In this document: positions 31,665 through 62,172 of the stretch, piece by piece
Layout of the letters: the number at the start of each line of letters is the position of its first letter
Position numbering within the stretch: the first letter of the stretch is position 1
DNA from: an uncultured delta proteobacterium
GTDB lineage: Bacteria > Desulfobacterota > WTBG01 > CAIYCZ01 > CAIRTM01
NCBI GenBank assembly: GCA_963723235.1
Contig: CAVRPV010000006.1
Location: 304,914-368,913 of the forward strand
Direction of reading: 5' to 3'
Length of the DNA stretch: 64,000 bases
Translations under genes and position numbers: made by a program
The notes under the pieces: generated by a model
Seen by the model: the letters and a program-made list of their open reading frames with translations, nothing else
Databases searched by the model: none
Told to the model about the DNA's origin: nothing

Positions 31665-31812
31665 GGTTGTTGAAAAAATCTTTTTATTCAGGCTGTTCAA
31701 AAAGGAACGGATGCAAGACGCGTGCAGTCATGAGGAATGAGGCGTACTCACTCGTACGCCGCAAAGACGAATGATAAGCGCAACGCAGCAGACGGGCTTT
31801 TTTCAACAGCCC
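31665..31812. repeat. Palindromic MITE/REP-like element, copy 2
   Basis: GGTTGTTGAAAAAATC...GAGGAATGAGGCGTAC...GTACGCCGC...GCGCAACGCAG...TTTTCAACAGCC. Confidence 0.75.
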
Positions 31813-31813
31813 G

Positions 31814-34440: not shown

Positions 34441-35906
34441 TCATTTGTAGTCCGCCACCTCGATCTTCAGTCTGCCGATAAGGTTCAACACCATGAGCTG
34501 CTCCTCCATATCACCCTCGATAAATCTCACGTGGGTAACATCGGCCGGAAACTGGTTCAGGGTTGCGTCAACCGGCACCCAGTCGTTCAGATACAACTCA
34601 TTCCATGCATGGTAATAAAACCGGCCGCGCAAATAAACAAGCCCTGCAACCACACGGGTCGGTATTCCGGCCGCGCGGCACAGCGCCGCCAAAAGCACGG
34701 CATGCTCGTTACAGTCCCCCTGCCGGGCTGCGAGCACATCAAGTGCACTGGGCATGCCCGGAATCGGCCGTTTCTCGATATTTTTATAGACCCATTCATG
34801 CAAGCGGCGCGCCAGCTTCAACGCGCCGGGCTCTCCTTCGCCGATAACCTTGACCAGATCGGCAAATTCTCCGCGATCGCTTTGAATCAGCAGCGACGGC
34901 GCAAGCCAAGCTTCAAAACCCCTGCCCTGTAAACGGCAGCGTGTAGGAATTTTTACGACCGAGGTTCTGCGCCGAGATAGTGACGACATTGCCCTGCAGG
35001 GTCTGCTGGCCGCCGTCAAGCTGAAAACCCTTCAGATCGACATTAAGCAGCCGGAGACTCAGCGAACTGAGGCTGCTGCTGTAAAACGGCGTGTCAACCT
35101 CAATGGCCGCAGTCTCCACCATGTCAACCCGCTCGCCCCAGCCGCCATGCATGGCCTGCTCCCTGTCCTCGCGCAGCGACACCATGCCGGTGGGGCTCTC
35201 CTCCTTCACGGTTCGGCCCTGCTGGTCTATCCAGGCAGTCATCGTGACGCCCATGTAGGTGACCTGCATACGATAGCAGTCATACTCCTGCCCGGCCACG
35301 CTGAGTGTTTCGCGATCCTGTACCTCGATGCTTGCCGTGCGGTTACTCATGGTCATGGGGTCAAATACAACCCGCTCATACACAGAGCCGGGCCGCAGAC
35401 CTTCCTTCATGAGACTGTATTGAAGGGCGTTTGTGATAACCGGAGCGCTGGTGAGCTGCAGTTTTTTTTTCTCGGTTTTACCGCCGCTCACCACGGAAAG
35501 GCTCATCAGATTGTCGGCATCAATATCACCATAGGCGATAAAGCTGAGCCGCACCGGTGTTGATCCGCAAACTGAAAACCTGAAGATTAAATGCGTGGTC
35601 CGTGACCGTGTTAACCTGGGCCATGGTTTTCTGGGCAACCCCCATCATGGCCATGTCAAGCATGATGGTGTGATGTATCTGATAGCCGTCTTCAATGCGC
35701 TTGAGGGAATTGTGGGTATAGCCGATTTTCTGCCCCTGGAAATAAACACCGGCCCACTCCTCGATGTTTTCAACAGTAGCGCCCATGAAATGATCATCAA
35801 AGCTCAGTGAAGCGCGGGCCCTGAACTGTTTGCTGACCAGCAACGCCACCATCACCAGCCAGAAAACTACCGCGCATGTGCCTGCAATTCGGTAAAGACG
35901 TTTCAT
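34441..35906 (-). CDS. Membrane-anchored transglutaminase-like protein (two frameshifts)
   Basis: GDCNEHA..LAALCRAAGIPTR, YYHAWNE, WVPVDAT Cys-His-Asp triad in the 3' fragment. Confidence 0.85.
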
Positions 35907-44141: not shown

Positions 44142-44217
44142 GGGCGGTTAGCTCAATTGGGAGAGCATCGGCCTTACAAGCCGAGGGTCACTGGTTCGAG
44201 CCCAGTACCGCCCACCA
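44142..44217 (+). tRNA. tRNA-Val(TAC)
   Basis: GGGCGGTTAGCTCA...CTTACAA...GGTTCGAGCCC...ACCA. Confidence 0.97.
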
Positions 44218-44273: not shown

Positions 44274-44350
44274 GGGGGCGTAGTACAGTTGGTTAGTACG
44301 TCGGCCTGTCACGCCGAAGGTCGCGGGTTCGAGTCCCGTCGTCCCCGCCA
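44274..44350 (+). tRNA. tRNA-Asp(GTC)
   Basis: GGGGGCGTAG...CTGTCAC...GGTTCGAGTCCC...GCCA. Confidence 0.97.
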
Positions 44351-44396: not shown

Positions 44397-44947
44397 GGTT
44401 GCGTATAGGTTGTGTCTTGCTTAACAACAGAGGTGGTTAGGATGGCTGTATTTTTAATATCCGGTGTGTGGATTGGGATGGGAAAAACTTTCCAACATCT
44501 GCTAAAACGTGGAATATATCAAAAATCTGCTAAAATAAAGAAATGTAATTTCAATAACTTATTATCATTGAGGGGCTTGGAAGCTCAGGAGTTCAATTCT
44601 GGCAGAAAGTGGAGTTCAGTCAGAAGAAACGCCGGCTGAAGATTGTAGCCATCGTGCCAGCCGGTCTTGCGCCGGGTTCCTAACCGATCAGCGTGAACGC
44701 CTGCGTCGGCGAAGTGGTCATTACCGGCAAAAATCGATAGCAGTACATTGCAACTCGAATATGTATCAAGCAGGCAGGGTCAGCACATGGCCCTGCCTGT
44801 TTGTTTTGGACGTCATTTCAATGAACATCCGGTCTGGGATGTATTGGCTGAGACACACCCCAAGCCCCCCTGTTTTCGAGCCTTTCAGTAGAGCCCCTGA
44901 GGTAACAGGCTAAATTTTCTTGTCAGGGTAAATGTAACAATAGGAAA

Positions 44948-45540
44948 GTATGATAGGAAAATGCATTGTCTGAGCTGTTTGACTAGATCATTTTAATTTT
45001 ACAAAGCTTACTACAGTAATTTTTAAAGACGTTCATCTTCAGCTCAATAGTTTTGCCAGCCTTTTGGCAGACGATAAGAATGTGTCGCCAGCTAAATTGC
45101 TGAGCGATTATGAGCGCACCGCCGGAGAAGCCTAGATAGCCTCCATGATATACGATGGATCATTAAATAAGCATACTGCGAATAAACTCTGCATCTCAGA
45201 AAATACTGTCAGGCATCATGTAACGAGTGTGTAAAATAAAGGTTGAAAGCCGTATCAGCTTAATCAATATGAAACGGGAAACAAGATTATTATCTAAACC
45301 ATTGCCTCTGCCGCACATAGGCCCTTTCGTGCCTGAAATATAGACCTTGGTGCTATTGTATTATCTGTTGATAGCGTATATCTTTACCTATACCAACAAC
45401 TGGTATTCGTTATATGTCTTCAAAAGGTTGTGGTCCTTAGAGCACTATGACTAACAGATGGGTGTGTATGATAGGAAAATGCATTGTCTAAGCTGCTTGA
45501 CTAGATCATTTTAATTTTACAAAGCTTACTATAATAATTT
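44948..45540 (+). repeat. About 75-bp direct repeats (44948-45022, 45466-45540)
   Basis: GTATGATAGGAAAATGCATTGTCT.AGCTG.TTGACTAGATCATTTTAATTTTACAAAGCTTACTA occurs twice. Confidence 0.85.
45095..45280 (+). pseudogene. Degenerate LuxR-type HTH remnant
   Basis: Reads ERTAGEA*IASMIYDGSLNKHTANKLCISENTVRHHVTSV*NK, matching the LuxR G..NK.IA..L.ISE.TV..H pattern with in-frame stops. Confidence 0.6.
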
Positions 45541-45774
45541 ATATTTATTTACATACTAAATAGTAATAATTAACACTTTAGATTTAAAATATTAAACTTC
45601 TTATTCATTAAAATCGAATAAAAATTAATTGTATTTTTTAGAGGCAATCTATATTTTTTTATTGATATCTATTGATAACATTGGCTTGATTTTTTAAAAA
45701 AAGAAAAAACCGCTTGAAAAAAAAAATTTATAGTCTAAATAGGTAGATAGACCAATAATACTTTTTGTTAAATA

Positions 45775-45866
45775 ATTAGTTTGAAAAAAGCCAAACCAGT
45801 CGTGAGGCTGGGACGGAAAGCCACGGGTTTTATACATTGATATAAAATAGCCGGGTTACCAAACAA
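45775..45866 (+). ncRNA. GEMM-I (c-di-GMP-I class) riboswitch aptamer
   Basis: AAG CC AAA CCAGTC GTGA GGCTGG GAC GG AAAGCC ACGGG...TAGCCGGGTTACC; G at the Vc2 G20-equivalent position. Confidence 0.9.
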
Positions 45867-45889
45867 TTGGTAGCCCGGCTATTTTTTTT
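45846..45889 (+). terminator. Riboswitch expression-platform terminator
   Basis: ATAGCCGGGTTACCAA/TTGGTAGCCCGGCTAT plus T8; overlaps the aptamer 3' strand (ON-switch geometry). Confidence 0.85.
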
Positions 45890-46419
45890 GTTTCGCGGTT
45901 TCTGCTATCGTCCTATTGGATCAGGAGGATAGAGTTTTTTATCTTTATTATTTATACTGGCTTGACTGTCGGTAGCATATAGTGAACCTCAAGCATGCTA
46001 TTGTATGCCTTGTGGTTGTATAGTGCATCACTACGTAGCAACAGTCAGTCTAAATTAACTCAAGTTCGTGACTAAGTCCAAAACCGGCAACCTTTTAATG
46101 GTTGTTCGGATCGGGTTTTTTTCTTTTTTTCTATATCCTGATGGCTATTTGGTTTTAACTCTTTACGTTTCATTTATCGGCTTATAGAGACAAAGCTTAA
46201 GAAAAAAAAGCAGCTATGTAAAAAAATATTTCCGGCGGTAAATTATGATCACAAGTTTCTTGGCTATTGCAGGGGGAAAAATATTTTTTAAACGTTCCTT
46301 TTCGCCTGTTTTCATCACCATGAAAAGGATGGGCCTGGAATATGAGGAGCAGGGAACGCATCTTAATTTTTGTTTTATGAGCAGCATTTGAATTCTGACA
46401 ATCATGAAAAGAAGAAATT

Positions 46420-46548
46420 ATGGAAGACCAGAAGAAGCGCTATGAAACACCGGCAATCATCACCCATACGGAGGAGGAAATCGCCAGCAGAATCGGGCCG
46501 GCGCACAAGGTACCCTCGGGGGGCCCTCCCGGCATTGAGTACCCGTAA
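46420..46548 (+). CDS. Putative RiPP precursor A1: MEDQKKRYETPAIITHTEEEIASRIGPAHKVPSGGPPGIEYP
   Basis: Manual translation; YxxPxI leader motif; two paralogues in the locus. Confidence 0.75.
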   Translation: MEDQKKRYETPAIITHTEEEIASRIGPAHKVPSGGPPGIEYP

Positions 46549-46604
46549 TAGCAACTGCATCTTGCAGGCTTAATAAATTTTTTACCCATTAGGAAGGGCT
46601 TTTA

Positions 46605-46799
46605 ATGGAAAAAAAACAATGGCTGCAACAATGGCTGGAGAAACGTTCCTACACGAAAGAGGATGTCCTTCACATAGCCGGAAAAAGGCTGCCGGAGACA
46701 CCAGATAGGCCATATACGGACCATGATATAGTCAAGATACTCGGCCCGACGTCCTGCGCTGAGAAACCCAGTGTGCCTTCCGGCACGCAATATCGGTAA
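46605..46799 (+). CDS. Putative RiPP precursor B1 (64 aa)
   Basis: AGGAAGG RBS; paralogue at 55915..56103; two YTxxD(I/V)xxIxG motifs. Confidence 0.7.
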   Translation: MEKKQWLQQWLEKRSYTKEDVLHIAGKRLPETPDRPYTDHDIVKILGPTSCAEKPSVPSGTQYR

Positions 46800-46937
46800 C
46801 CGCAACATTAACCGGGAGATTTTAACAAGCCCACATAGCAATGACATTTTCATACGGAGAACTCTTTATGAAAAAGATTTTTTTCTGCCACTTGTAGCAG
46901 CATTTTTAAAATGCCAAAGGAGAGGAGGTATTGCAGA

Positions 46938-47033
46938 ATGAAAGAACAGTATGAAAAGCCTAAAGTTGTAGAAATTGATTTGGAGGAATCTTTCAGTTTT
47001 GGACGGCCGCCTGTTAGCCCCATTATGCCATAA
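46938..47033 (+). CDS. Putative RiPP precursor C1: MKEQYEKPKVVEIDLEESFSFGRPPVSPIMP
   Basis: AGGAGG RBS; YEKPKV leader motif; tandem copy 177 bp downstream. Confidence 0.8.
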   Translation: MKEQYEKPKVVEIDLEESFSFGRPPVSPIMP

Positions 47034-47114
47034 AGAGCAATTTGGATGTTGGTTGCGATTAACTTTTTAAGAGTTTTAAACAGTGTTCCATTAGACAAAA
47101 GGAGGTATTGCAGA

Positions 47115-47204
47115 ATGAAAGAACAGTATGAAAAGCCTAAAGTTGTAGAAATTGACCTGGAGGAATCTTTCAGTTTTGGGCGGCCGCCTGTTAGCCCTCT
47201 TTGA
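47115..47204 (+). CDS. Putative RiPP precursor C2: MKEQYEKPKVVEIDLEESFSFGRPPVSPL
   Basis: AGGAGG RBS; differs from C1 by synonymous changes and the C-terminus only. Confidence 0.8.
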   Translation: MKEQYEKPKVVEIDLEESFSFGRPPVSPL

Positions 47205-47261
47205 TTGATTATCGTTCATGGTGATATCTCCAAAGAATTGTGTCAATACTTGCGGGTGTGA

Positions 47262-48155
47262 ATGCAGACACACGTAACGACCGGTTTTGGCGGTTATGTT
47301 GTGCGGTTTGTTTGTGAAGATGCAGGGGTAGTGGATCTTCTTGATTTGCACTTCCGTGAACACGTGACCGACGCAGAGCCGGATGTCACGCTTGCTATGA
47401 GGGTTGTTGCGCCGGGTGTGATCGCGAAGGTTGATGATCTTTCTGAATCGTACTATGCTTTTTTTGATCAGGGGACCGTCAATTTTGGCCCCAACCTGCT
47501 TGAGGGGCGCTGGGATTTCGACAGTAAGATATTTACCCTGAAGGTCAGCCGCGAACTCATGGTGCAGGAGGAGTTGTGGCTTTTTGACCGGTTTTTATGC
47601 AGGCTGTATTATACCCTGGTGATGAGGGACAGGCGCCGAAGCTCCAGGCCGTTGATTGTACATTGTGCAGGGGTGGTCCGCGATGGCAGGGGCTATATTT
47701 TCTTCGGTCCCCCGGGAAGCGGAAAAAGCACGGCAGCCGGCCTGTCCAGACACTATCATATCATGCATGATGATATGAACATTGTGACCTTGGACGGTGA
47801 CCGGGTGCAGGTTCAAGGTGTTCCCTTCAACCCGAAGCTGATCGAACGCACCAATGTCGGCGTGCCCCTGTCGATGATCTGTTCGCTGCATCAGTCAGCT
47901 GCGGTACGCCTTGAACGGGGAACACAGGATGAGTTCCTGCAGAAAGTCGTACCGGAAAATTTTCTGCCGCTGCCGCTTTTCACCAACGATCGCAAGCATG
48001 CTTTTCAGTACTTGTTGGCATGCCTCAGGGACTTGAGTCGGCAGGTACCCTATTACCGCTTGTATTTTAAAAAAGACGAAAGCTTTTGGGACCATATCGC
48101 AACAGTGGAGGTTTTGCATGGACAACATTCAGCAGATGTACATCAAAAGAATTGA
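47262..48155 (+). CDS. HPr-kinase-related P-loop protein 1
   Basis: VHCAGVVRDGRGYIFFGPPGSGKST...MHDD...GVPF. Confidence 0.8.
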   Translation: MQTHVTTGFGGYVVRFVCEDAGVVDLLDLHFREHVTDAEPDVTLAMRVVAPGVIAKVDDLSESYYAFFDQGTVNFGPNLLEGRWDFDSKIFTLKVSRELMVQEELWLFDRFLCRLYYTLVMRDRRRSSRPLIVHCAGVVRDGRGYIFFGPPGSGKSTAAGLSRHYHIMHDDMNIVTLDGDRVQVQGVPFNPKLIERTNVGVPLSMICSLHQSAAVRLERGTQDEFLQKVVPENFLPLPLFTNDRKHAFQYLLACLRDLSRQVPYYRLYFKKDESFWDHIATVEVLHGQHSADVHQKN

Positions 48156-48415
48156 AGACAATGCCGTCTGGACGAAGCTGGACAAGGGCACCATGATTAT
48201 TATGACAGCGGATATAGGAAAAGGTGCTGGACCTCAACAAGACAGCGGCCTGTCTCTGGGAAAAGAGCGATGGCTCGCAGACGGTCGGAGCGCTTGTGGA
48301 ACACCTGTGCCAGACGTATGACGTGGACGCGGAGGCCGCACTCGCTGACGTCATTGATTTTATTGAGGCTATGAAAAAGAAGAACCTGCTCGCGGTTTCA
48401 GAGGCTGCGATATAA
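48118..48415 (+). CDS. PqqD-family RiPP recognition element (frameshift near 48222)
   Basis: GGAGG RBS; MDNIQQ...MIIMTADIG joins LDLNKTAACLWEKSDGSQTVGALVEHLCQTYDVDAEAALADVIDFIEAMKKKNLL, a classic PqqD pattern. Confidence 0.85.
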
Positions 48416-48441
48416 CGCCGCGCCAAACGGAGTGTCCCTGC

Positions 48442-49587
48442 ATGAAATCACGTGTCAGTGCATGCATGATCGTTAAAGACGAGGAGGCGAACCTTGCCCG
48501 GTGCCTCCGCAGCATCCGAGGCGCAGTTGATGAAATAATCGTGGTCGACACGGGCTCCCGCGATGCAACCGTCGAAATCGCCCGATCCTTCGATGCACAT
48601 GTATACTTCTGCCCCTGGGAGGATAATTTCTCCATTCCCCGCAATGTGTCCATCGAGCATGCGCAGGGGGAGTGGATTTTCTTGATCGATGCCGATGAAG
48701 AGCTGGAAAGCGCTGCACGGGACACAATCCAAAAACTTGTATGCAACAATACCCTGCTTGGGTACTCCGTGCTCATAGAAATGCATCCGGACTTTACCCC
48801 GATGAGGAGTCTGCGTTTGTTCAGGAATATGCCTTCCTTGCGTTTTAGAGGGGTCTTTCATGAAGAGTTGACAGTACCCCGGGACAGCGCCGACAGGGTC
48901 ATGCCTGCCGACATACGGATTATTCACACACCTTTTAATCAGGAAATAACAGACAGGAAATATGAGCGCAATGTCACGCTTTTGCGCAAGCATCTGAACG
49001 AATACCCTGATGATGCGTATCAAATGCTCGATCTTGCGCGGCTATACCTGGGGAAGGATGCCGCGGCTGAGGCTGAAATACTTTTGCAGCGTGCCCGCGG
49101 GATTATTCTCGACCATACTCCATCGTACAGCAGGCAGAAGCTGGAGGTGTGCCGTTCTTTTTATTATTCGCTGCACTACGGATGTTTGTTGCAAAAAAAC
49201 AGCGATATCCGGGAGCGCCTGACAGTGTGCCGGGAAGCCATTGAGACCCTGCCGGAATGCCCCTTGTTTTATTATCATGCGGCCAACCTGTATTATGCAT
49301 TGCAACAGTATGAGGCGGCCATCGGGCATTTTGAGAAATGCATTGCATTTGGAAAGCAGCCGGCACGTGATGTGACCATTTTGTATCCCCGCGAGTGTCT
49401 CAGCAGTCTCCCTCTTGCCGGTTTGGGATATTCTTTATTCAGGGAAAAAAAATATATGCAGGCCACCCGCTATTTTAAGGCATCCCTTGCATACAAACAG
49501 GATCATGCCATTGATGTAATGTTAGCTTCGGCATCACTGCTTGCAGAAAAAGCCGAATGCACTGCCGGCAGCCTTCCGCGCCCATGA
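48442..49587 (+). CDS. GT2 glycosyltransferase with C-terminal TPRs (SunS/flagellin-GT-like architecture)
   Basis: SACMIVKDEE, DTGSRDAT, WEDNFS..RN, WIFLIDADE, FRGVFHE, then TPR-like helices. Confidence 0.88.
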   Translation: MKSRVSACMIVKDEEANLARCLRSIRGAVDEIIVVDTGSRDATVEIARSFDAHVYFCPWEDNFSIPRNVSIEHAQGEWIFLIDADEELESAARDTIQKLVCNNTLLGYSVLIEMHPDFTPMRSLRLFRNMPSLRFRGVFHEELTVPRDSADRVMPADIRIIHTPFNQEITDRKYERNVTLLRKHLNEYPDDAYQMLDLARLYLGKDAAAEAEILLQRARGIILDHTPSYSRQKLEVCRSFYYSLHYGCLLQKNSDIRERLTVCREAIETLPECPLFYYHAANLYYALQQYEAAIGHFEKCIAFGKQPARDVTILYPRECLSSLPLAGLGYSLFREKKYMQATRYFKASLAYKQDHAIDVMLASASLLAEKAECTAGSLPRP

Positions 49588-50999
49588 ATCATCATCTCCC
49601 GGTTTATTTCGGTCGGTTCGCGCTCGCTATAGTATCTCCCTCAAAATCGGTCATTGATCATCTGCGGCTATTCTTTGCCGGGTATGAATGTGGTCGGAAA
49701 GCCACTGCCACCCTGCATATTCTCACATCCAGAGATTTGCCTCCTCCCCGGGAACAGCTGTTATCCAAGCAGTGGACCGCTTTGGCAGTGCATGACAATG
49801 GGTTTGAAATAGGTCCCAATGTGATACAGGGAAGAATTCTACCGGATCAGTGTACCTTCATTATTACGGTGCATGAAGATTTGTTTTTGCCGGGACTTGC
49901 AAATGTGATCAATGCTTTTTTTTACCGTCTCTACTATACCTTGTGCGCTCTCAACAAAACTCACAGCTGCATTATCCATGGTTGCGGCGTGATGCGCGAT
50001 CAGATCGGCTATCTGTTTATCGGGCCGCATCACTCGGGGAAAACAACCATCGGACTGTTATCAGGCGCCCCCATTCTGCATGATGATCAGATGATCCTCA
50101 CGCTTGAAGGCGACACGCTTACCATGGACAGCCCGCCGCTACCGGCGCGGGATAATCTCAGGCAGCGGCCCGAAGCGCCCTGTGTACTCGAAAGGATTTT
50201 CCTTGCGGTAAAGGATGAACAGTTCTCTGTCAGGCAGCTCGCTCCGGAGCATGCGGTGGCGTGCCTTTATAATGATGTTGTGATGCCCCATACGCTTCTC
50301 TCCGTTGCTGCGAACGCGGCCCGCATGCGCAAGGCGCAGTTGTGTTTTGCCCTTCAGCGGGCAGTACCTGTGTTTGAGCTGCATTTTGACAGGCAGGGGC
50401 AATTCTGGGAACAGCTCAGCACGATGCAATGGCCTATATCGATAAATGAGCATACAATTGATACAGCCGGTGATAGGCCGAAGAGATTTGTCAGTCGTGT
50501 ATGGCTTGAGCAGTATCAGCAGTCGGGCGCCGGAAGCTTAACCATTCTCAGCGGGAGCATGGCGCCGCTGATCAATACGGGGGATCAGATTTGTGTCCGC
50601 AAAACGCCGCTTGACCGTATCCATATCGGCGACATCATTACTTTTTGGAAAGGGGGGGAATTGATTACTCATCGCGTCATACGTACATGCATCAGAGAGG
50701 GAGGAGTATGCTTTGTGGAGCGGGGTGACAAGCATCCTCATCATTCTTTCATTGATGCAGCATCGGTCATCGGCAAGGTAGCCAGGATCAATAAGGGCAG
50801 CCATAGTGTTGAGATGCACAAACTGCACTGGCAGATATTTAACCGAACTGTCGGAGTTCTGTTTTTAAGCATCTTTTTTTTACGCCTCCTGGCCCGGCGT
50901 ATTCCATTTCTTCCCCAGCAGGTTAAAGGTGGCGGCAATAAAATTTTAACTGTTCTGACGAGAATAAAAAACAAAGCTCTTAATGCTCAGTTCAGGTGA
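49584..50999 (+). CDS. HPr-kinase-related P-loop protein 2 fused to an S24/S26-family peptidase
   Basis: IHGCGVMRDQIGYLFIGPHHSGKTT...LHDD; C-terminal SGSMAPLINTGD...GDIITF...ITHRVI...RGD; ATGA overlap with the GT gene. Confidence 0.8.
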   Translation: MNHHLPVYFGRFALAIVSPSKSVIDHLRLFFAGYECGRKATATLHILTSRDLPPPREQLLSKQWTALAVHDNGFEIGPNVIQGRILPDQCTFIITVHEDLFLPGLANVINAFFYRLYYTLCALNKTHSCIIHGCGVMRDQIGYLFIGPHHSGKTTIGLLSGAPILHDDQMILTLEGDTLTMDSPPLPARDNLRQRPEAPCVLERIFLAVKDEQFSVRQLAPEHAVACLYNDVVMPHTLLSVAANAARMRKAQLCFALQRAVPVFELHFDRQGQFWEQLSTMQWPISINEHTIDTAGDRPKRFVSRVWLEQYQQSGAGSLTILSGSMAPLINTGDQICVRKTPLDRIHIGDIITFWKGGELITHRVIRTCIREGGVCFVERGDKHPHHSFIDAASVIGKVARINKGSHSVEMHKLHWQIFNRTVGVLFLSIFFLRLLARRIPFLPQQVKGGGNKILTVLTRIKNKALNAQFR

Positions 51000-51069
51000 A
51001 ACAAACGAGACTTGCAAAGCTGGCTGCATCCTGTAAAGTAATAATGAATGATGTCATCTTGAGTCTAAC

Positions 51070-51175
51070 ATGGTCCCCATAATAGAACTACAGAACATCT
51101 CTAAATATTACCCGAAAGCGGCGGGGGTATCGCGGCTTATAATCCCCAAAATTGAGGGGGGCAAAGCCCTCACCT
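51070..51175 (+). pseudogene. Truncated N-terminus of an ABC ATP-binding protein
   Basis: MVPIIELQNISKYYP...KAL then similarity is lost before Walker A. Confidence 0.45.
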
Positions 51176-51254
51176 TATGCAGGTTGTGGCCTTCACAGTT
51201 GAATAATGTCTCGCCAAAGGCCGCGCTCGCAAGGCCGATGAGCAGCTATTCAAA

Positions 51255-51395
51255 GAATGTCAGATAGGCCTCCTTGAATCGCATCTTCCGTACCTCCTGC
51301 AGCATTTCTGTCCGTTTCATGAGTCACCTCCAGCAGTGACTCTAAACCGGACAGTTCATGTGCTACAAGACCGGACAGATTATAAACTCCCAACA
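51255..51395 (-). mobile_element. IS1202/ISNCY-like IS end plus transposase 5' fragment
   Basis: Minus strand starts TGTTGG, has two CTGTCCGG repeats, then GGAGG and MKRTEMLQEVRKMRFKEAY. Confidence 0.65.
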
Positions 51396-51551
51396 CAAAG
51401 GAAAAAGCAATTGACCGCCGCACGCAAAAATCGTATAGATTGTTGGCAGTCACAACCGTTAACCAACGGCGGCTTGTAGTGTTTTAAAATCGTTTTGGCG
51501 ACATTAACTAAAAATCGAGGCGCTCTTCAAAGCACAAAAAAGTAGCCCACA

Positions 51552-52706
51552 ATGACAGCCAAGCAAACTTCAATCTACGCACTCATCGCTGGAAATCATT
51601 CTGATGGTCCTTTGAATGATGACGTACTGAAGGTCTTATATGATCACAACCTTTTACCTTATTTCTTTTCTAGTAACAGGGCATTTCCCGTTGAACTTCA
51701 GAAAACCAGACGGACTATTCTGATAAAACAGCAGCTTGTATATCAGTTGGCTTGTAGGGACTTGGTGCAAGTGGTTGAGGCTTTGGAAGCAGTCGGTGTT
51801 GAATACCGGGTGTTGAAAGGAATCGCAATTGCTCAGACCTATCCTTATCCATATGCAAGGAGCATGGGAGATCATGACATTTGTGTCCATGTTGAGAATT
51901 TTGATCAGGCAATAGTGGCTATTGCGTCATTAGGATATCAAAGGAGCGAAAGGGAAGATACAGAAAGTGACGTGGGCTTTTTCAAAGAGGGCCACCTCAA
52001 AATCGAACTTCACAGACAATTGTTCGACCATGGTCGTGTGCGTAATGGCGAGGATTTGCTGCATGAGCTTTGGGCAGATGCTTTCGAGATCATGGTAGGC
52101 AGCAAGGTTATTCTTGTTCCTCAAATAGAGACTCATTTTAAATATTTAATCATTCACATGTTGAGGCATCTGATATATACAGGAATTGGCATCCGGAATT
52201 TGATAGATATTGTTCACTTTAGTACAGTTCACGCTGTTGACTGCAAATCCTATCAAACCTATTTTGATGACTATGGCTATGGTGCCTTTTATAGAGCGAT
52301 TATCTCGATCTGTGTCTATGAATTAGGCATGAAAATAGATGATCATTCCTGGCTATATAATAAAGAGGAATTGGTGATTAGAGATTTGTCATCGTATATT
52401 CTCCAAAGTGGCGCTTTTGGTGGTAGCGATGAAGCGCTTATCAGAGAAATTTATACCCGGCTTTTGAAACCCAATCAAAAAAACCATGTGTTTATAATAA
52501 TATTGTCGTCTCTATTCCCAAGTTCAAAAGCGATCGGTGCTTGCTACAGTTATGTGACTAAATGGCCTGTGCTGCTTCCTGTAGCATGGGTACACCGATG
52601 GCTTAGGTTCACTTTAAAGACCAAACTCTATGTGATCACAAAGACTAAGAATAGCTTTGTTATAAAAGATCGCTTGATGAAGGGTTTGGGTTTGCATGAT
52701 TATTGA
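51552..52706 (+). CDS. Nucleotidyltransferase family protein (NTP_transf_5-like)
   Basis: VLKGIAIAQTYPYPYARSMGDHDICV, IELH, IHMLRH..GIGIRNLIDI, LLPVAWVHRW. Confidence 0.85.
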   Translation: MTAKQTSIYALIAGNHSDGPLNDDVLKVLYDHNLLPYFFSSNRAFPVELQKTRRTILIKQQLVYQLACRDLVQVVEALEAVGVEYRVLKGIAIAQTYPYPYARSMGDHDICVHVENFDQAIVAIASLGYQRSEREDTESDVGFFKEGHLKIELHRQLFDHGRVRNGEDLLHELWADAFEIMVGSKVILVPQIETHFKYLIIHMLRHLIYTGIGIRNLIDIVHFSTVHAVDCKSYQTYFDDYGYGAFYRAIISICVYELGMKIDDHSWLYNKEELVIRDLSSYILQSGAFGGSDEALIREIYTRLLKPNQKNHVFIIILSSLFPSSKAIGACYSYVTKWPVLLPVAWVHRWLRFTLKTKLYVITKTKNSFVIKDRLMKGLGLHDY

Positions 52707-52959
52707 AGCTTACACCGCCCCTGTTTTATAGTTTGCCCATCTCAAAACAAGTTCCGATCAAGAAGGCCGTTGCCGTTTCCCGTGGGGCAGAGGGAAACTC
52801 AGCATCACATGCAGGCATGTAGCTGTCCTTCAGGTACTGGTTTGCTGCCCTCATTGTTGTGATCTCCAGTTTTGCCAATTCGTTTGTACGCCGACGGCAC
52901 AGCTATAACTGCATGAGCGAAGGACTGAATCCGGTTCTGTCTGCTCACCTCCTGTACGT

Positions 52960-54135
52960 CTACAAATTATCTATCATGTCCCCCATCATGGATAAATGTC
53001 CGGGCTCTAATGTGTAACAATTTACATTCTCGACAATTTTTCCGACAGTCAATAACATCGAGGAAGCTTTCCCGGCAGATTCATTAAAGAAACTGGTGCC
53101 CGGAGAACGGTTGATCATATGGGTCAGGATTCGAAAGCAGGCTTCGGACTTTGGCAATTGCCGTATCTGCGGGTTCTGTTCAAAACATGGTTTTTTATCC
53201 TCAACAATTGTGACCCCGAGTATTTCACACTCATACCTGCTCCAGATATCCTGGTAAAATGCCATTAGGGATTTTTTATCAGGTGCTCTGAATCTGTATG
53301 CGGGATATCCGTGAGTCAGCACTTCATATGCCATCTCAACATCAGGATGCCGCGACAGCCTGTCAAGCAATCCCTGGTGGTGGTTCAAAAGCATGAGATC
53401 AAAATAACATCCACGACTGGCTTGCTCTGCCTGCTGCGCAACGCTTTCTACAAGCAGGATGATATTTTTGGGTGCGCATCGTTGCCCTTGACTTGCAGGG
53501 AACAAATCAGCGGGATCTGCAAAATACTTGCCTTCAAAATCAAGATAAAAAGCCTTCTGCGTATCAACCAACCCGTAAAAAGGGCTGTTCTCCTTTATGC
53601 CAACCCTTCTGGGAAAAGGGTCAAGGCAATAGTCATGTTTTCTTATAAGACAAAACTCATCGGATAAAAACTGATAGCCGCGTGACAACAGCTCAAGCAC
53701 CAAAGTTGTTTTGCCGAATCCAGATGGCGCTATGATTACCGTACCATTATTTTCCTTCGAGACAACACCCGCATGAATAAGGATGTAGTCACTGATCATC
53801 GGCATAATCCGCGTGAAAATTATCTGCTCGGCAAGGCCGCTGATTTTTCTATCGGAGGGTAAGTGCGCAGCGAACCCGTTACTCTGGATGAGCAACGGAC
53901 CATGATGAAATCGATTTTTTTTCAAAATATAGAAGGTAAGACACGTTTCCGGAAGTTTTTGACACATAAAATTTTTATACACTTGGCTAAACGCAGCAAA
54001 GCTGTCCTGACAGTCAGCGTACAGTTCGAGACCGACATTAAAAAAATTAAAAACACGCCGATACGGAGCCTGCTTTTGTATATCCTGTCGATCTGATGGA
54101 GTTAAATTAATCTGCATATCCTGTAATGCTATCAC
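52960..54135 (-). CDS. HPr-kinase-related P-loop protein 3
   Basis: LIHAGVVS...IIAPSGFGKTTLVLELLSRGYQFLSDEF...PFPR. Confidence 0.82.
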   Translation of the reverse strand: MIALQDMQINLTPSDRQDIQKQAPYRRVFNFFNVGLELYADCQDSFAAFSQVYKNFMCQKLPETCLTFYILKKNRFHHGPLLIQSNGFAAHLPSDRKISGLAEQIIFTRIMPMISDYILIHAGVVSKENNGTVIIAPSGFGKTTLVLELLSRGYQFLSDEFCLIRKHDYCLDPFPRRVGIKENSPFYGLVDTQKAFYLDFEGKYFADPADLFPASQGQRCAPKNIILLVESVAQQAEQASRGCYFDLMLLNHHQGLLDRLSRHPDVEMAYEVLTHGYPAYRFRAPDKKSLMAFYQDIWSRYECEILGVTIVEDKKPCFEQNPQIRQLPKSEACFRILTHMINRSPGTSFFNESAGKASSMLLTVGKIVENVNCYTLEPGHLSMMGDMIDNL

Positions 54136-54154
54136 ATATTGTTGATAAAATGAC

Positions 54155-54200
54155 TTAAAAAATCCATGGGATTATACTCCGTTTGTATAATCCCATGGAT
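54155..54200 (-). terminator. Intrinsic terminator
   Basis: Perfect 16-bp stem ATCCATGGGATTATAC/GTATAATCCCATGGAT with a T run on the minus strand. Confidence 0.75.
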
Positions 54201-54306
54201 AGGCATGAAACTTATTTTTTTTGCATCAGTCTATAAGCATATATCCTGACACACTATACTACACTACACGAATCTTCCCCTCTACCAGAGGCACGTCTAC
54301 CACCGA

Positions 54307-54412
54307 TCAGGGCAGTTCAATGCCGCGGGGATTCTCTTACAGTAAAACCCGATGCAGGGCACCGCATCATAAATGCTGCTGCGATAATTGGCAGAATAAT
54401 AATCTTACGCAT
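54307..54412 (-). pseudogene. Internally deleted duplicate of the secreted protein gene
   Basis: MRKIIILPIIAAAFMMRCPASGFT matches the N-terminus of 54674..55846; joined out of frame to ENPRGIELP*, matching its C-terminus KNPIGIELD*. Confidence 0.7.
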
Positions 54413-54480
54413 AGTATGTCCTCGTTATAAGATTGGTATGGCTTTCGATAAACCCGTGAAAATATCAGGTTACTAGAGCT

Positions 54481-54609
54481 TTACGGGTACTCAATGCCAG
54501 CAGGGCCTCCCGAGGTTACCGTATGTGCCGGCCCGATTATGCTGGCGATTTCCTCCTCCGTATAGGTTATGATGGCTGGCGTTTCATAGCGCTTCTTCTG
54601 GTCTTCCAT
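54481..54609 (-). CDS. Putative RiPP precursor A3: MEDQKKRYETPAIITYTEEEIASIIGPAHTVTSGGPAGIEYP
   Basis: Manual translation; AAGGAGGAG RBS. Confidence 0.8.
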   Translation of the reverse strand: MEDQKKRYETPAIITYTEEEIASIIGPAHTVTSGGPAGIEYP

Positions 54610-54673
54610 AACTCCTCCTTTGAAAAAGATATGTTTATACAGTGTTGTAAAAACCTCACCATAACTATTGCCA

Positions 54674-55846
54674 TCAATCTAATTCAATGCCGATGGGATT
54701 CTTGATCTTCGTCTGTTCTTCTGCTGTTACTGTCTTCTGGCTTCGAGCTTTGTTTTTACGGGGTGGTTTGTTATCCTTATCTATGCGATACTTGAAATAC
54801 ATCGCCCAATTACCGTGGAATTTTTTGAAGCGCTTACCGGCACCCCAGGCAGTCTGCTCATCGCAGATTTTCTGCTCGCAGGGAAGCGGCACAGGTATAA
54901 TCACGGGCTGGGCGGGCAGGCCCTGGACGTCAAACGGCTGCAATACAACGCCAACAAACTCCGTGCAGCCCGGCTCATAAAAAAAACCGTATTCTTCGGC
55001 GCCAGCGAGGATTTCAGCCACCTGGCAGCGTGAATACGGGCCCAGACTCAGGTTGCTGTTCTCATCATCAATCAGGGTCCAGATAGCCCTTTGAACCGAA
55101 CCATACGTATAGACCGGAAGATCAGGGTTGCATTGTGTCGGCTTGCCGACAAACTGCTGATTCAAAATCCAGTTGATCTTGTCGAGATTCCCCGGGAAAT
55201 CAACCAGACCATCCGGAAGCGTTGCATAGCTAGAGAAGACATTTGCATTGTACTGCACTCCTTCCGTTATACCAATCGACGTTGAAAGGCACCATCCGTC
55301 ATGGGTGCCCGTAAGCAGATCATCAGCATCGGCAACATCAATTGCGGGGAGATACGCCGGGCCATCGAGATAGGGATCGTTCGTGGTCATCGTTGCTTCT
55401 GCGGGAAGCGTGCCAGCAAAAAGAGCAAGATCAGGATCCTCATACCCGCAGATAGACCCCACAACAGCGTGTGCCGCAATATAGACACACTTAGTGCGCG
55501 AAGACCAACGCAATGGAATTGTATACATGTGCTCGGTTGCGCAGTCGAGCTCATCCTGGAATTCAAACTTTTCGGGTATGGGGTGGAAGAATAGCTGCGG
55601 TATTAACCGCGGGCTGCATTCGACAGCAAGGTGCGTCTCGCGCAAACACCAACCAGAATCAGTGATCACATACTTCACGTACATGTTCGTGTCATCATTC
55701 CAGACACGGACTTCACCGACTGTGATGTGCTGGCCTGCGATCAATGGAGTGACAAACGGGGAGGCTTCTGTTGCAGTAAAGCCCGATGCAGGGCACAGCA
55801 TCATAAAAACTGCTGCTACAATTGGCAGAAAAATAATCTTACGCAT
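54674..55846 (-). CDS. Secreted Cys-rich protein with a thioester-domain-like insert
   Basis: Signal peptide; LIAGQ..VGEVRVWND..WCLRETHL domain; insert with GWCLS, KINWILN, VQRAIW, AQPVII. Confidence 0.75.
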   Translation of the reverse strand: MRKIIFLPIVAAVFMMLCPASGFTATEASPFVTPLIAGQHITVGEVRVWNDDTNMYVKYVITDSGWCLRETHLAVECSPRLIPQLFFHPIPEKFEFQDELDCATEHMYTIPLRWSSRTKCVYIAAHAVVGSICGYEDPDLALFAGTLPAEATMTTNDPYLDGPAYLPAIDVADADDLLTGTHDGWCLSTSIGITEGVQYNANVFSSYATLPDGLVDFPGNLDKINWILNQQFVGKPTQCNPDLPVYTYGSVQRAIWTLIDDENSNLSLGPYSRCQVAEILAGAEEYGFFYEPGCTEFVGVVLQPFDVQGLPAQPVIIPVPLPCEQKICDEQTAWGAGKRFKKFHGNWAMYFKYRIDKDNKPPRKNKARSQKTVTAEEQTKIKNPIGIELD

Positions 55847-55914
55847 ATTATGTTTTCCTTATAAAATTGTCAGTGACATATTGACTTGTTAGAATCTCCC
55901 GGTTAATGCTGAGA

Positions 55915-56103
55915 TTACGGAGATTGAGTGCCTGAAGGCCCACTGGATGTCGCAGCGCAAGGCGTCGGGCCGAGTATCTTGCCTATATCCTCTTTCATGC
56001 TATCAGGTTCAAAGTATGACCTGTTACCGGCTATTTTGAGGATATCCTCTTTCGTGTAGGACCTTTTTTCCAGCCATTGTTGCACCCATTGTTTGTTGTC
56101 CAT
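55915..56103 (-). CDS. Putative RiPP precursor B2 (62 aa)
   Basis: MDNKQWVQQWLEKRSYTKEDILKIAG...KEDIGKILGPTPCAATSSGPSGTQSP; paralogue of B1. Confidence 0.7.
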   Translation of the reverse strand: MDNKQWVQQWLEKRSYTKEDILKIAGNRSYFEPDSMKEDIGKILGPTPCAATSSGPSGTQSP

Positions 56104-56159
56104 AAAAAGCCCTTTCTAAATGGTGAAATATTCATTACATATGCAAAATACAGTTGCCA

Positions 56160-56294
56160 TTACGGATGCTTAATGCGGCGAGGGTGAGGGCCGCCCGAGG
56201 TACAGGTAAGTGCCGGCCCGATTATGCTGGCGATATCCTCCTCCGTATAGGTGATGATTGCTGGCGTTTCATAGCGCTTCTTCTGGTCTTCCAT
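56160..56294 (-). CDS. Putative RiPP precursor A2: MEDQKKRYETPAIITYTEEDIASIIGPALTCTSGGPHPRRIKHP
   Basis: Manual translation; AAGGAGGAG RBS. Confidence 0.8.
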   Translation of the reverse strand: MEDQKKRYETPAIITYTEEDIASIIGPALTCTSGGPHPRRIKHP

Positions 56295-56830
56295 AACTCC
56301 TCCTTTACATGATTGTTAGAATTAAAATGCTGGACATAAAACAAAAATAAAGATGCGTTCCCTGTTCCACTTATCTCAGGCCCCTCCTTTACATGGCAAT
56401 GGAAACAGTCGAAAATTGCCGTTTAAAAAATTTTTTCCTCTGCAATAGCCAAGAAACTCGTAATCATAATTTACCGCCGGAAATATTTTTTTTCGTATCT
56501 GCATTTTTTGCTTAACCTTTGTTTCTATAATCCGATAAATAAAACGTACAGGGTGAAAATTAAACAGCCATCAGTCTATATAAAAAAAGAAAAAGAACCT
56601 CATTCGGACAACCATTACAAGGTTGCCGGGTTTTAGATTTAATAACGGATTTGAGTTAGCTTAGACTGACTGTTGTTTCAGTGATGCACAATACAACCCC
56701 GAAGCATATAATCGCATGCTTCGGGTTCACTAAATGCCGCCACAGTCAATACAGTACAAATAATAAGAGAACATAAAAAGCCAGACGCTATCGCACTGAT
56801 GCCATAGACCGATAGCAGAAACCGTGAAAC

Positions 56831-56940
56831 AAAAAAAACAGCCGTACTGCCAAGTTCAACTTTGGCAGCCCGGCTGTTTTTTTTAAAAACCCTTGGCTTT
56901 CCGCGCTATCCCAAAGGATAGGTTGGCTTTTTCAGTTTGA
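56831..56940 (-). ncRNA. Variant GEMM-I riboswitch with overlapping terminator
   Basis: Minus strand AAG CC AAC CTATCC TTTG GGATAG CGC GG AAAGCC AAGGG...CAGCCGGGCTGCC, then TTGGCAGTACGGCTG-T8. Confidence 0.75.
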
Positions 56941-57458
56941 ACAAAAAGTATGTTTTAACCTTTGTCTACTAGTTTAATTTTAGCATCTATTCTTCTGAAT
57001 ACAATTATTATTTTATGTTTGCATACGAATTGATTAAAATTTGATGGGGACTTTGACGTTTATTAACAATATTTTCTTTATTTTACAATCAAAAACGATA
57101 CGATTATAATGGTTTTGTAAATACAGCCTATATTTTAATAATAACTATCATTATAAATAGATTTAGTATTTTTTTATACCAGGATAGCCTCTCAAGCACA
57201 CCTCCAGCACAGGATTTACATGGTGGTCTATTACTGCGGTTATAAAGGTATCAGGTTTGGCGCTCGGCCAGTAAATTTTAAAGAATAATGGCTGCGGCAA
57301 GCCCGTCAATTTTGGCGGGGTCTACTTTGAAGTTGTAAAGCGCTAATTCGCGCATACGCTCGCAGGCTTCTGCGCTTGAGAACGCTTCGTCCTGCTGAAA
57401 GAGCGGCAAAGAGCAAGGGCTTCTTCCAATTGTGTGCTGAAGGTCTCGATCCGGCACT

Positions 57459-59267: not shown

Positions 59268-59344
59268 GGCTAATAAAACACAATATCTGGTGCACTGTAC
59301 TACAATGAGGCGTTTGCCGCATCCGGTAACAAGTGTTTGTGATC

Positions 59345-60200
59345 TGTTAGATTTCGTTGCGTTGTTTACACTTCTGGTTCATAGAAGTATTTGATCAGTT
59401 TTTCATATGGCGTCATATTGTCAATACCTTTATGGGGTTTGACCGTGTTGTAGAAGTTAATAAATCGCAGCAGGCTGATTTGACGGCTCTTCCGATCTCG
59501 GAAAATTTCCTGCTGATGCACATTTCCATGAGTGTACGGATCACCGTTCGGCTTGCGTTGGTCTGCGGCGATTGATCCGGGTGAATTTTTGACCAATGCG
59601 AGTTGGGAGCAGGCTGTACAAATGCGTGTTTACTGGCTCCTTTGAACTCTTTACCGTTGTTGAATAGGTGTACTCGATGGTGTAAGGGCACTCATCGACA
59701 TCTGGAGCAAAAACAGTTCCGCACTGTATTGCGTTTTGTCGGGAAGATCCCTGCGTAGAGTTCCAGAAAGTAGCTCATCGCGACAAACAGATACTCCCTT
59801 AGCAGTGTTGGTCTCGCCTTGATCAACGGGAGACGCTTGCTGTCAAAATGGACCAGCTCCCCCGGATAGGACTTGTTGTAGCGCTGGCTTCGCGTTTGCG
59901 TCTCTCTTCGAGTGGCGCTCAACTTGGCAGCCGCTTCAGGCCGTATTTGAGGCTGCGGAACCGATCATTGACACTTTTTCTCGGAAGAAACTCCTGTTTC
60001 CTAGCCGGGCAAGTGTTTATAGATCGTTGGTTGAGACTCGGTAGCGCTCAGCCAGAGCGCTGACTTGTACTGGTGTTTGCATAACTGCAGATTTTTTGGC
60101 GGTCATGGGGTGTTAACCGAATACGTTTGTGCATAACCATGTTTACAAAATCCTCCGTGGTGATTATCGGATTCTGTAAACAACGCGTCAAGTTCTTACT
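59345..60200 (-). mobile_element. Degenerate IS481-family insertion sequence
   Basis: Fragments RYNKSYPGELVHFDSKRLP, NNGKEFKG, PQTN, FYNTVKPHKG; terminal inverted repeats share GCGTTGTTTACA. Confidence 0.8.
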
Positions 60201-61749: not shown

Positions 61750-62172
61750 ATGGAAACAATGGCACTCAATGAACGCGGGCTTGCAGACGCGAAAACAACA
61801 ACCGAAGCAGACACGAATGCGTGCCGCTCAACCAATGCCGACGAGATCGTCTATCTCTTTGATACCGACTATATCGGCTCGAACATGGAGCTCGGCAAGG
61901 TGCTGGTCAACGGTTTTTTGACCGCAGCCCTCACGCTACAGCACACGCAGTGCACGATTGTGCTCATCAGCAATGCCGTGCGCCTTGCGACAAAAGGTTC
62001 CTATGCCCTTGACGTGCTGTCAAAACTTTGCGCGAAAGGATACCGGATTCTTATCTGCGGGACCTGCCTTGACTTTTTCAAGATACGCGCTGACGTGCAG
62101 GTCGGCACAATCTCCAACGCACTTGAAATCATGCAGGTTATGACAGAAGCGGGAAAAGTGGTAAAGTTCTGA
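61750..62172 (+). CDS. YedF/DsrE-like selenium/sulfur relay protein
   Basis: IGSNMELGKVLVNGFL, ILICGTCLDFF, VGTISN; divergent from selD. Confidence 0.8.
   Translation: METMALNERGLADAKTTTEADTNACRSTNADEIVYLFDTDYIGSNMELGKVLVNGFLTAALTLQHTQCTIVLISNAVRLATKGSYALDVLSKLCAKGYRILICGTCLDFFKIRADVQVGTISNALEIMQVMTEAGKVVKF

Follow-up and report, generated by a model that had tools for sequence, protein, structure and literature searches.

The stretch of DNA considered here, hereafter the window, comprises 64,000 nt of contig CAVRPV010000006.1 (positions 304,914 to 368,913, forward strand) in GenBank assembly GCA_963723235.1, which comes from an uncultured delta proteobacterium of the Desulfobacterota; the genome amounts to 2.8 Mb in 20 contigs and is 83% complete. 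Two small and nearly identical genes, C1 and C2, encode peptides of what is called here family C and head a cassette of genes for a kinase-like protein of the HprK/phosphoenolpyruvate carboxykinase (PEPCK) fold, a PqqD-family protein, a glycosyltransferase (GT) and a second HprK-like protein joined to a signal peptidase (Table 1). C1 and C2 are discussed as probable precursor genes of peptides that are ribosomally synthesized and modified after translation (RiPPs), whose leader would be read by a RiPP recognition element (RRE) of the PqqD family.

Table 1. Features of the family-C locus and its surroundings (coordinates are those of the window; ORF, open reading frame; aa, amino acids)
Feature	Position	Strand	Basis or remark
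c-di-GMP-I-GGC aptamer (RF03167) with overlapping terminator-like hairpin	45781..45885	+	66.5 bits, gathering score 59
Family A peptides, 42-44 aa	46420..46548; 54481..54609; 56160..56294	+; -; -	Leader YExP
Family B ORFs, 62-64 aa	46605..46799; 55915..56103	+; -	
Shine-Dalgarno AGGAGG and 9-nt spacer, copy 1	46923..46937	+	Same 15 nt before both ATGs
Precursor gene C1, 31 aa, leader 1-22, core RPPVSPIMP	46938..47033	+	ORF, family alignment, homologues
Shine-Dalgarno and spacer, copy 2	47100..47114	+	Same 15 nt as copy 1
Precursor gene C2, 29 aa, leader as C1, core RPPVSPL	47115..47204	+	ORF
Kinase 1, HprK/PEPCK-fold P-loop protein, 297 aa	47262..48155	+	Weak hidden Markov model (HMM) matches, structure model, Foldseek, motifs
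PqqD-family RRE, split over two frames	48118..48415	+	N-terminal part from 48118, C-terminal part from 48224
GT2 glycosyltransferase with tetratricopeptide repeats (TPR), 381 aa	48442..49587	+	PF00535 7.5e-19 plus TPR
HprK-like protein (kinase 2) + SipW/archaeal-type signal peptidase I + C-terminal hydrophobic segment	49557..50999	+	Peptidase domain at residues ~317-412
NTP_transf_5 nucleotidyltransferase, 384 aa	51552..52706	+	PF14907 8.8e-34
c-di-GMP-I aptamer heading the other arm of the inverted duplication	56861..56937	-	45.5 bits; GEMM-I class, like the GGC one
MsbA-like ATP-binding cassette (ABC) exporter, 602 aa	57459..59267	-	ABC_membrane and ABC_tran; MsbA model 2.2e-82, below cutoff

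The two peptide genes lie in a direct repeat of 98 nt (46923-47020 and 47100-47197) with three mismatches, that is 97% identity, and a start-to-start distance of 177 nt. Both copies open with AGGAGGTATTGCAGA followed by ATG, and upstream identity ends at the Shine-Dalgarno box. A preliminary description of this DNA had proposed a tandem duplication with a 177-bp period, which the repeat and its two Shine-Dalgarno-led ORFs bear out; the span that it gave, 46921..47204, starts 2 nt before the repeat and ends with the stop codon of the second copy. Tandem Repeats Finder does not list the pair, because with only 1.6 copies it falls below the scoring of that program. Over the 28 shared codons, C1 and C2 differ at four positions (GAT/GAC, TTG/CTG, GGA/GGG and CCC/CCT), and all four differences are synonymous transitions. 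Since 21-28% of the possible single-base changes in these codons are synonymous, the probability of four out of four is ~0.002-0.006. The ends diverge, C1 finishing with ...VSPIMP and C2 with ...VSPL, and the 60 nt that follow the two stop codons match at 15 positions, which is chance level. Synonymous-only change in the shared coding part and unrelated downstream spacers, both put forward earlier, are therefore upheld.

The two spacers and the stretch 5′ of C1 fold no better than shuffled sequences (z +1.05, -0.52 and +0.62), and promoter-like matches occur at chance level (4 found versus 4.5 expected), so that the one located at 46885-46912, before C1, is not evidence for a promoter. A contig assembled from an RNA library (run X22) spans 47172-47303, from the end of C2 to the start of kinase 1, with one letter different, which is a weak hint of transcription; another (run X21) falls inside kinase 1. 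Gaps in the cover of the window by such runs are not evidence of silence.

Conservation across the family separates a leader from a core. When 35 family-C sequences, including those of the window, are aligned up to Gly22, P8, F19 and G22 are invariant, and at least 90% of the sequences retain Y5, E12, D14, L15, E17, S18 and F21. The leader consensus, xxKExYExPxVEEIDLEESFSFG, contains the motifs Y..P.V and (I/L)(D/E)LEESFSFG, and after YxxPxV it runs on as EEIDLEESFSFG. Beyond Gly22, the 35 sequences have 35 distinct cores of 6-20 aa (median 9), in which Pro makes up 27% of residues. Ser or Thr is present in 34 of them, Cys in seven, and a Ser-Pro lying 0-4 residues from the C-terminus in 22. 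Two contigs with a kinase 91% and 84% identical to that of the window carry an identical leader and a different core, RVPVSPC in one case and an 18-residue core, created by an in-frame insertion of 33 nt, in the other. A constant leader with a swapped core is the pattern of a RiPP precursor. The preliminary description had assigned three Ser to the core. However, SFSFG belongs to the conserved part and hypervariability begins only after Gly22, so that the core proposed earlier is probably leader plus a core of 7-9 aa with one Ser; its remark that no ring-forming Asp or Glu is present stands, as RPPVSPIMP and RPPVSPL contain neither. A search of a profile of the peptides against the chains of the PDB gave no match at E <= 10.

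Family C is strictly linked to its cassette. In the genome itself, C1 and C2 are the only members. Six-frame searches with a profile built from the first six family-C sequences found the family in four of the 42 class genomes, namely G000, G009 (where two copies stand in tandem), G017 and G023, and not in two genomes of the same genus with a completeness of 96% and 100%. Across an evenly drawn phylum sample, three of 401 genomes gave strong matches (G000, G009 and G017; E 3.7e-19 to 6.2e-18), and four further matches (E 0.007-0.01) sit inside large ORFs. Among 1.84 billion representative proteins, a profile search retrieved 18 called family-C peptides of 31-56 aa at E <= 0.001. In all four carriers of the class, the peptide gene or genes stand directly 5′ of homologues of kinase 1, PqqD and the GT, in a cassette ordered as HprK-like kinase, PqqD/RRE (~99 aa), GT2-TPR (~382 aa), second HprK-like protein (~283 aa) and S24/SipW-type signal peptidase. 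Metagenome contigs, which were queried with the 297-aa kinase 1 and not with the peptide, yielded 18 loci; in 12 of these, one or two peptide genes end 73-394 nt before the start of the kinase gene, in five of the remaining six the DNA upstream is shorter than 130 nt, and the last (L078) is a distant partial match to kinase 1 without a peptide gene. Homologues next to PqqD, as the preliminary description had anticipated, are thus found before the same kinase-PqqD cassette in genomes and metagenomes alike, and the position that it gave to C1 and C2, directly 5′ of kinase 1 and PqqD, is confirmed by the match of the latter to PF05402 (57.8 bits). The nearest loci in the collection of named genomes are labeled as from uncultured Thermodesulfobacteriota (two loci) and Proteobacteria (one). 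A literature search returned nothing on family-C peptides or on the leader string EESFSFG; what it retrieved included work on lasso clusters of the rumen.

Some loci have additional elements around the precursor genes. Between the last precursor gene and the kinase gene of L061, L062 and runs X2 and X22 lies a terminator-like hairpin of ~36-40 nt, T run included, an arrangement that would fit an attenuator raising the precursor-to-enzyme ratio; the corresponding stretch of the window (47210-47255) is without it. Two loci (L003, 1602..1718, minus strand, and L075, 3265..3339) have an extra small ORF just 5′ of the precursor gene that keeps the ..L.ESFGFG box, is devoid of YxxP and has a hydrophobic tail at its end; either a degenerate paralogue or a gene for a different product may be present there.

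The product of the first enzyme gene of the cassette, kinase 1, has weak matches in NCBIfam, to ScmC (5.8e-8) and HprK_rel_A (4.4e-7). A structure model built from 40 homologues (predicted local distance difference test, pLDDT, 86.5; predicted template modeling score, pTM, 0.86) retrieved in Foldseek, with a probability of 1.0 in both cases, ATP-dependent PEP carboxykinases (E 1.6e-9; template modeling score 0.46-0.51 on the query) and HprK/P 1knx (E 9.2e-7). The Walker A residues S153-G154-K155-S156-T157 and the triad H169-D170-D171 are invariant in the 40 homologues. In a large protein collection, all 46 relatives of kinase 1 are unnamed or annotated as ‘hypothetical’, and 44 of them are assigned to PF27840. 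The domain of kinase 2, which occupies the N-terminal ~290 residues (~10-292) of the 480-aa protein that also contains the peptidase, is 28% identical to kinase 1 over 296 aa (E 1e-26) and keeps GxxxxGKT and HDD. Distant relatives of kinase 1 were also seen in metagenome-assembled genomes (MAGs) of Chloroflexota, Actinomycetota and WWE3 (L024, L027, L028, L029, L030 and L032), where they adjoin PqqD, radical SAM-SPASM and NTP_transf_5 genes and, in one case, a transglutaminase-like gene as well. The pairing of an HprK fold with an RRE is one that recurs across several unexplored types of cassette.

The GT consists of a GT-A (GT2) domain followed by TPR-like repeats, as do SunS, the 7msk protein and Listeria GmaR, all of which act on peptide or protein substrates; GmaR is a flagellin O-GlcNAc (N-acetylglucosamine) transferase. 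These are also its nearest sequences in the PDB (GmaR 6.7e-29, 7msk 6e-19, SunS 6e-17). A glycocin of the SunS type was considered and rejected, the match to the SunS-family model (1.7e-26, 93 bits) being below the cutoff of 350 and the cores being short and mostly free of Cys. Glycocin precursors have double-glycine leaders and cores that form disulfide-stapled helices, and to our knowledge no RRE is used in their biosynthesis.

The predicted peptidase follows kinase 2. Residues 319-412 of the 480-aa protein match the model TIGR02228 (sigpep_I_arch) with 58.3 bits for a cutoff of 51.85, and GSMAPLI, THRV and G-D of this domain are invariant in five homologues; we take GSM and THRV to be the catalytic Ser box and the His of a SipW/endoplasmic reticulum-type signal peptidase I. 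Kinase 2 and peptidase form a single ORF in the window and two genes in all other loci seen, which reflects either a real fusion or a lost stop codon. Further on, the window has genes for an NTP_transf_5 nucleotidyltransferase and for an MsbA-like exporter, the latter ~8 kb from the cassette on the opposite strand and of uncertain membership; neither was seen in the other family-C cassettes examined.

The PqqD-family RRE is intact, with 98-104 aa, in 11 related loci, and in the window its C-terminal part (48224-48412) scores 57.8 bits against PF05402 (57.5 bits in the six-frame search). As the window copy is broken, the interaction was modeled with the intact RRE of L061, a locus whose kinase is 91% identical and whose leader is the same, together with the C1 peptide, both being entered as alignments. 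The complex scored 0.63, compared with 0.01 for the best of three controls; this mark is reached by 116 of 157 solved complexes and by two of 215 mismatched pairs. Runs agree in at least 94% of contacts, and the pLDDT of the partner is at least 59. The modeled interface involves residues 2-13 and 15 of the peptide and residues 35-44, 47, 64, 66-70 and 78-89 of the RRE, and in the model the contact is a canonical strand addition. The result shows a likeness to solved RRE-leader complexes, which is not proof of binding.

The closest described system is that of the linear polyphosphorylated peptides (LPP), defined by Popov et al. (Nat Commun 2026, PMC13381572). LPP clusters contain a signal peptidase I (SpI)-like protein LppS, an RRE LppB, an HprK-like kinase LppK, a nucleoside triphosphate (NTP) transferase LppN and an MsbA-like pump LppD, together with one to three precursors of 35-200 aa whose leader reads YxxPxVLxHQxIxFETxxS. 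In a heterologous host, LppK places up to four phosphates on Ser3 of the core and the product is linear, cleavage by LppS after Thr-1 depends on LppB, and Y-16 and P-13 of LppA are required for RRE binding. The paper calls the family restricted to Bacillota and gives its final product and role as unknown. In Supplementary Data 2, which covers 126 LPP clusters and names NTP_transf_5, a core domain of these clusters, as that of the transferase, 140 NTP_transf_5 and 19 Glycos_transf_2 domains are counted, and Supplementary Data 1 has single SpI homologues beside RREs in a Desulfobacca MAG, Thiolapillus and Chloroflexota (PMC13381572).

Like these clusters (PMC13381572), the window combines a discrete PqqD-type RRE, an HprK-like kinase and a SipW/archaeal-type signal peptidase I with no cyclase. 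Genes for an NTP_transf_5 protein and an MsbA-like exporter also occur in the window, which brings the kinds of gene to all five, but these two are only possible parts of the family-C cassette. The precursors likewise share a conserved N-terminus that starts with YxxPxV and a hypervariable C-terminus. There are also differences. After YxxPxV, family C has (E)E(I/L)(D/E)LEESFSFG instead of LxHQxIxFETxxS; its cores are of 6-20 aa, compared with 45 aa in LppA; the GT2-TPR and the second HprK-like gene are constant whereas NTP_transf_5 is not; and the hosts are sediment MAGs of the Thermodesulfobacteriota type rather than Bacillota (PMC13381572). The cassette is classed here as working like an LPP system and, with regard to membership, as a variant that fails the published precursor motif. 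Another comparison is with SynChlorMet cassettes (HprK-like ScmC, PqqD-type ScmD and a radical SAM/SPASM enzyme). ScmC is the best NCBIfam match of kinase 1, but no radical SAM enzyme accompanies the family-C cassette and all scores are far below the family cutoffs. The cassette genes examined, those of the window, G009, L067, L071, L072 and L074, yielded no Radical_SAM domain, and a radical SAM/SPASM-modified peptide, of the kind that flanks another peptide family (A, below) elsewhere, was therefore rejected.

In paeninodin, a phosphorylated lasso peptide, the phosphate acceptor is the C-terminal Ser, to which the Ser-Pro near the C-terminus of 22 of the 35 family-C cores may be compared. Systems of the paeninodin and pseudomycoidin types, in which a Ser of the RRE-bound precursor is the target of an HprK-like kinase with an NTP_transf_5 partner (PMC13381572), resemble what is proposed for the window. 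They differ from family C, which has neither macrolactam synthetase nor B2 protease, whose cores are without an acidic ring acceptor and whose leader is predicted to be removed by a serine enzyme of the signal peptidase type.

C1 and C2 are likely to be two paralogues that function as precursor genes in an LPP-type pathway dependent on an RRE, with a product that would be linear, phosphorylated and probably also glycosylated. The reading of the preliminary description, duplicated RiPP precursors of a non-lasso kind held under selection, is supported by the synonymous-only divergence, the cassette-linked homologues, the PqqD match, the modeled interface and the lack of a cyclase on the contig. 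Phosphorylation, glycosylation, cleavage site, export and biological role are proposed by analogy with LPP and paeninodin-type systems. In such a scheme, the 22-residue leader would bind the RRE through Y5-x-x-P8-x-V10 by adding a strand to its sheet, and the bound precursor would be offered to at least one of the two HprK/PEPCK-fold kinases as well as to the GT2-TPR enzyme, which is GmaR/SunS-like. Kinases and GT would modify Ser (or Thr), the likeliest sites being the Ser of the C-terminal Ser-Pro and/or the nearly invariant Ser18. The SipW-type serine peptidase, with the Ser of GSM and the His of THRV, would then cut the leader within or right after the (S/T)-F-x-F-G box. The cut would fall after Ser20 if the 16-residue distance from Tyr to the cut in LppA held here; a cut after Gly22 would also fit the rule of small residues at -1 and -3 of signal peptidases, position -3 being Ser, Asn, Gly or Ala. 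The short Pro-rich product could finally be exported, possibly by the MsbA-like pump.

Several points weigh against this reading. Expression is supported by short contigs from RNA libraries, which may contain DNA. Ser-Pro is absent from 13 of the 35 cores and one core is without Ser or Thr; therefore no single acceptor suits all members. What the leader has in common with the published LPP motif is limited to the first third, and neither F-E-T ahead of the cut nor Ser +3 has a clear counterpart (PMC13381572). Against LppB (9x8z, E 1.2e-4), the profile of the RRE scores no better than against B1 proteins of lasso systems (9x90 PbaB1, 1.4e-6; TbiB1, 1.5e-5), and the cassette may therefore have arisen by independent assembly. 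The score of the complex may in part be memory of like structures, since RRE-leader complexes have been solved. For kinase 1, HprK-related HMMs score 29-32 bits for cutoffs of 125-200, and a comparison with PDB sequences found no match beyond the P-loop. Finally, the reading frame of the RRE gene is broken in the present assembly.

The competing explanation that fares best gives precedence to the sugar. O-glycosylation of the core by the GT2-TPR enzyme would define the class, and the HprK-fold proteins would be accessory or not peptide kinases at all. A homologue of this enzyme is encoded in all 13 family-C cassettes with DNA past the RRE gene, while Glycos_transf_2 is rare in the Bacillota LPP clusters as tabulated (PMC13381572); among solved structures it is closest to GmaR, a protein O-GlcNAc transferase, and to 7msk and SunS, which glycosylate peptides, and a Ser or Thr is at hand in 34 of the 35 cores. 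Kinase 1, however, is linked as strictly, being the query that found all the loci, kinase 2 is present in the eight cassettes out of eight with enough DNA, both kinases keep the P-loop and H-D-D, and nothing in the cores corresponds to the helical hairpin with Cys bridges that glycocins possess. An account that puts glycosylation first is unlikely; phosphorylation and glycosylation may well occur together, in which case the choice is a matter of emphasis.

The frameshift of the RRE gene raises another question, namely whether the peptide family is real but the pathway dead or silent at this locus. Compared with L061 and L062, whose 99-aa genes are intact, the window lacks 2 nt near 48215, and a stop codon stands in the downstream frame; the precursor-kinase hairpin of L061, L062, X2 and X22 is missing as well. 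However, a related contig from run X2 lacks one more nucleotide at this site and is hence in frame, and other genes of the window are also split (ABC_tran_2, 31684-33518; aldehyde ferredoxin oxidoreductase, 62138-63986), for which reason an assembly indel is plausible. Such indels, if real, would touch any gene call in this genome. Run X1, the best DNA match to the window, provides no contig across the frameshift. Only synonymous changes separate C1 from C2 in their shared codons, which speaks for selection until recently. A decaying locus appears improbable, more so than a glycopeptide pathway.

That C1 and C2 are lasso precursors or translated regulatory leader ORFs of the operon is scarcely credible: YxxPxV and PqqD are common to lasso systems (PMC13381572) and short ORFs do stand at the head of the operon, but the five Asn_synthase (PF00733) matches of the genome all lie on other contigs (C4, C10, C11 and C17, the window being on C6), no B2 protease belongs to the cassette, the sole transglutaminase-like gene of the window encodes a PF01841 protein of general type at a distance of 12 kb (34441..35019), and the cores of the window have no Asp or Glu, whereas a lasso core has an acidic residue at position 7-9. 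A lasso peptide was rejected on these grounds. As for a regulatory leader ORF, one would not expect it to preserve 22 aa of sequence with a changing tail, to be duplicated together with a Shine-Dalgarno box of its own, or to dock on the RRE when modeled.

The surroundings of the LPP-like cassette have their own structure. A block of low G+C content at 44.4-59.9 kb (34-52%, compared with 51-61% in the flanks), located directly 3′ of tRNA-Val (44142-44217) and tRNA-Asp (44274-44350), looks like an acquired island (44400-59900); a 78-nt direct repeat is found at 44948 and 45466. Inside it, an inverted duplication of ~1.1 kb (45785-46884 versus 55830-56932, ten segments, 70-89% identity) has arms that each carry a riboswitch, a member of family A and a member of family B. 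The plus-strand arm stops just before C1 and the other just before a gene for a 390-aa secreted protein (54674..55846, minus strand), which agrees with the earlier statement that the second arm has a secreted-protein gene in place of the peptide genes. Downstream, the plus-strand arm is followed by the family-C cassette and the minus-strand arm by a module of the secreted-protein gene, family A and a third gene resembling HprK_rel_A (52960..54135, minus strand). A 31-aa ORF (54317..54412, minus strand) repeats the end of the signal peptide of the secreted protein and is included in a direct repeat (54304-54435 and 55738-55869).

The riboswitch of the plus-strand arm, an aptamer of the c-di-GMP-I-GGC type (c-di-GMP, cyclic di-GMP) at 45781-45864 overlapped by a 19-bp terminator-like hairpin (45844-45885), lies ~1.05 kb 5′ of C1 and is a possible regulator of this arm. 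No riboswitch was found in the cassette loci of G009 and G023 (L011 and L013) or in 18 family-A loci, so that riboswitch control would be special to the genome studied here.

Family A, whose leader has YExP followed by ..TY.EEEI...GPA.T and a variable tail, is found in 14 of the 42 genomes of the class with up to nine dispersed copies per genome. Its usual neighbors elsewhere are a discrete PqqD gene and a gene for a PqqD-radical SAM-SPASM fusion, often next to a ModC-like ABC ATPase, and contig C10 of the present genome has a second PqqD plus a family-A-like ORF. Family B was found only in the present genome and in one of the same genus (E 1.5e-14), where it adjoins a family A gene, a 416-aa ORF and a transposase fragment.

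What is new at this locus is an LPP-like pathway in a new phylum with a fixed glycosyltransferase; its chemistry is one that we infer, and among described families LPP is the nearest to it. It is conceivable, although somewhat less than an even chance, that the pathway represents a separate RiPP subclass, assembled independently of the Bacillota LPPs, of linear Pro-rich phospho-glyco-peptides of 6-20 aa in Thermodesulfobacteriota of anaerobic sediments, made by an RRE, two HprK-fold kinases, a GmaR/SunS-like GT and a leader protease of the signal peptidase type and placed here behind a riboswitch of the c-di-GMP class. If so, the riboswitch wiring would tie peptide chemistry to the switch towards sessile or biofilm life in this genome, and the upstream riboswitch is in any case a testable lead on the biological role. 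More generally, this locus and its ~35 relatives extend the logic of LPP (RRE, HprK-like kinase and signal peptidase-type protease) to another phylum and habitat. With short cores that are easy to synthesize and to analyze by mass spectrometry, and with a glycosyltransferase as fixed partner, they offer a tractable system for the joint products of kinases and a sugar transferase, for the reading of leaders by a signal peptidase-type enzyme, and for the distinction between the part of a leader that serves the RRE (YxxPxV) and the part that serves the enzymes (LEESFSFG).

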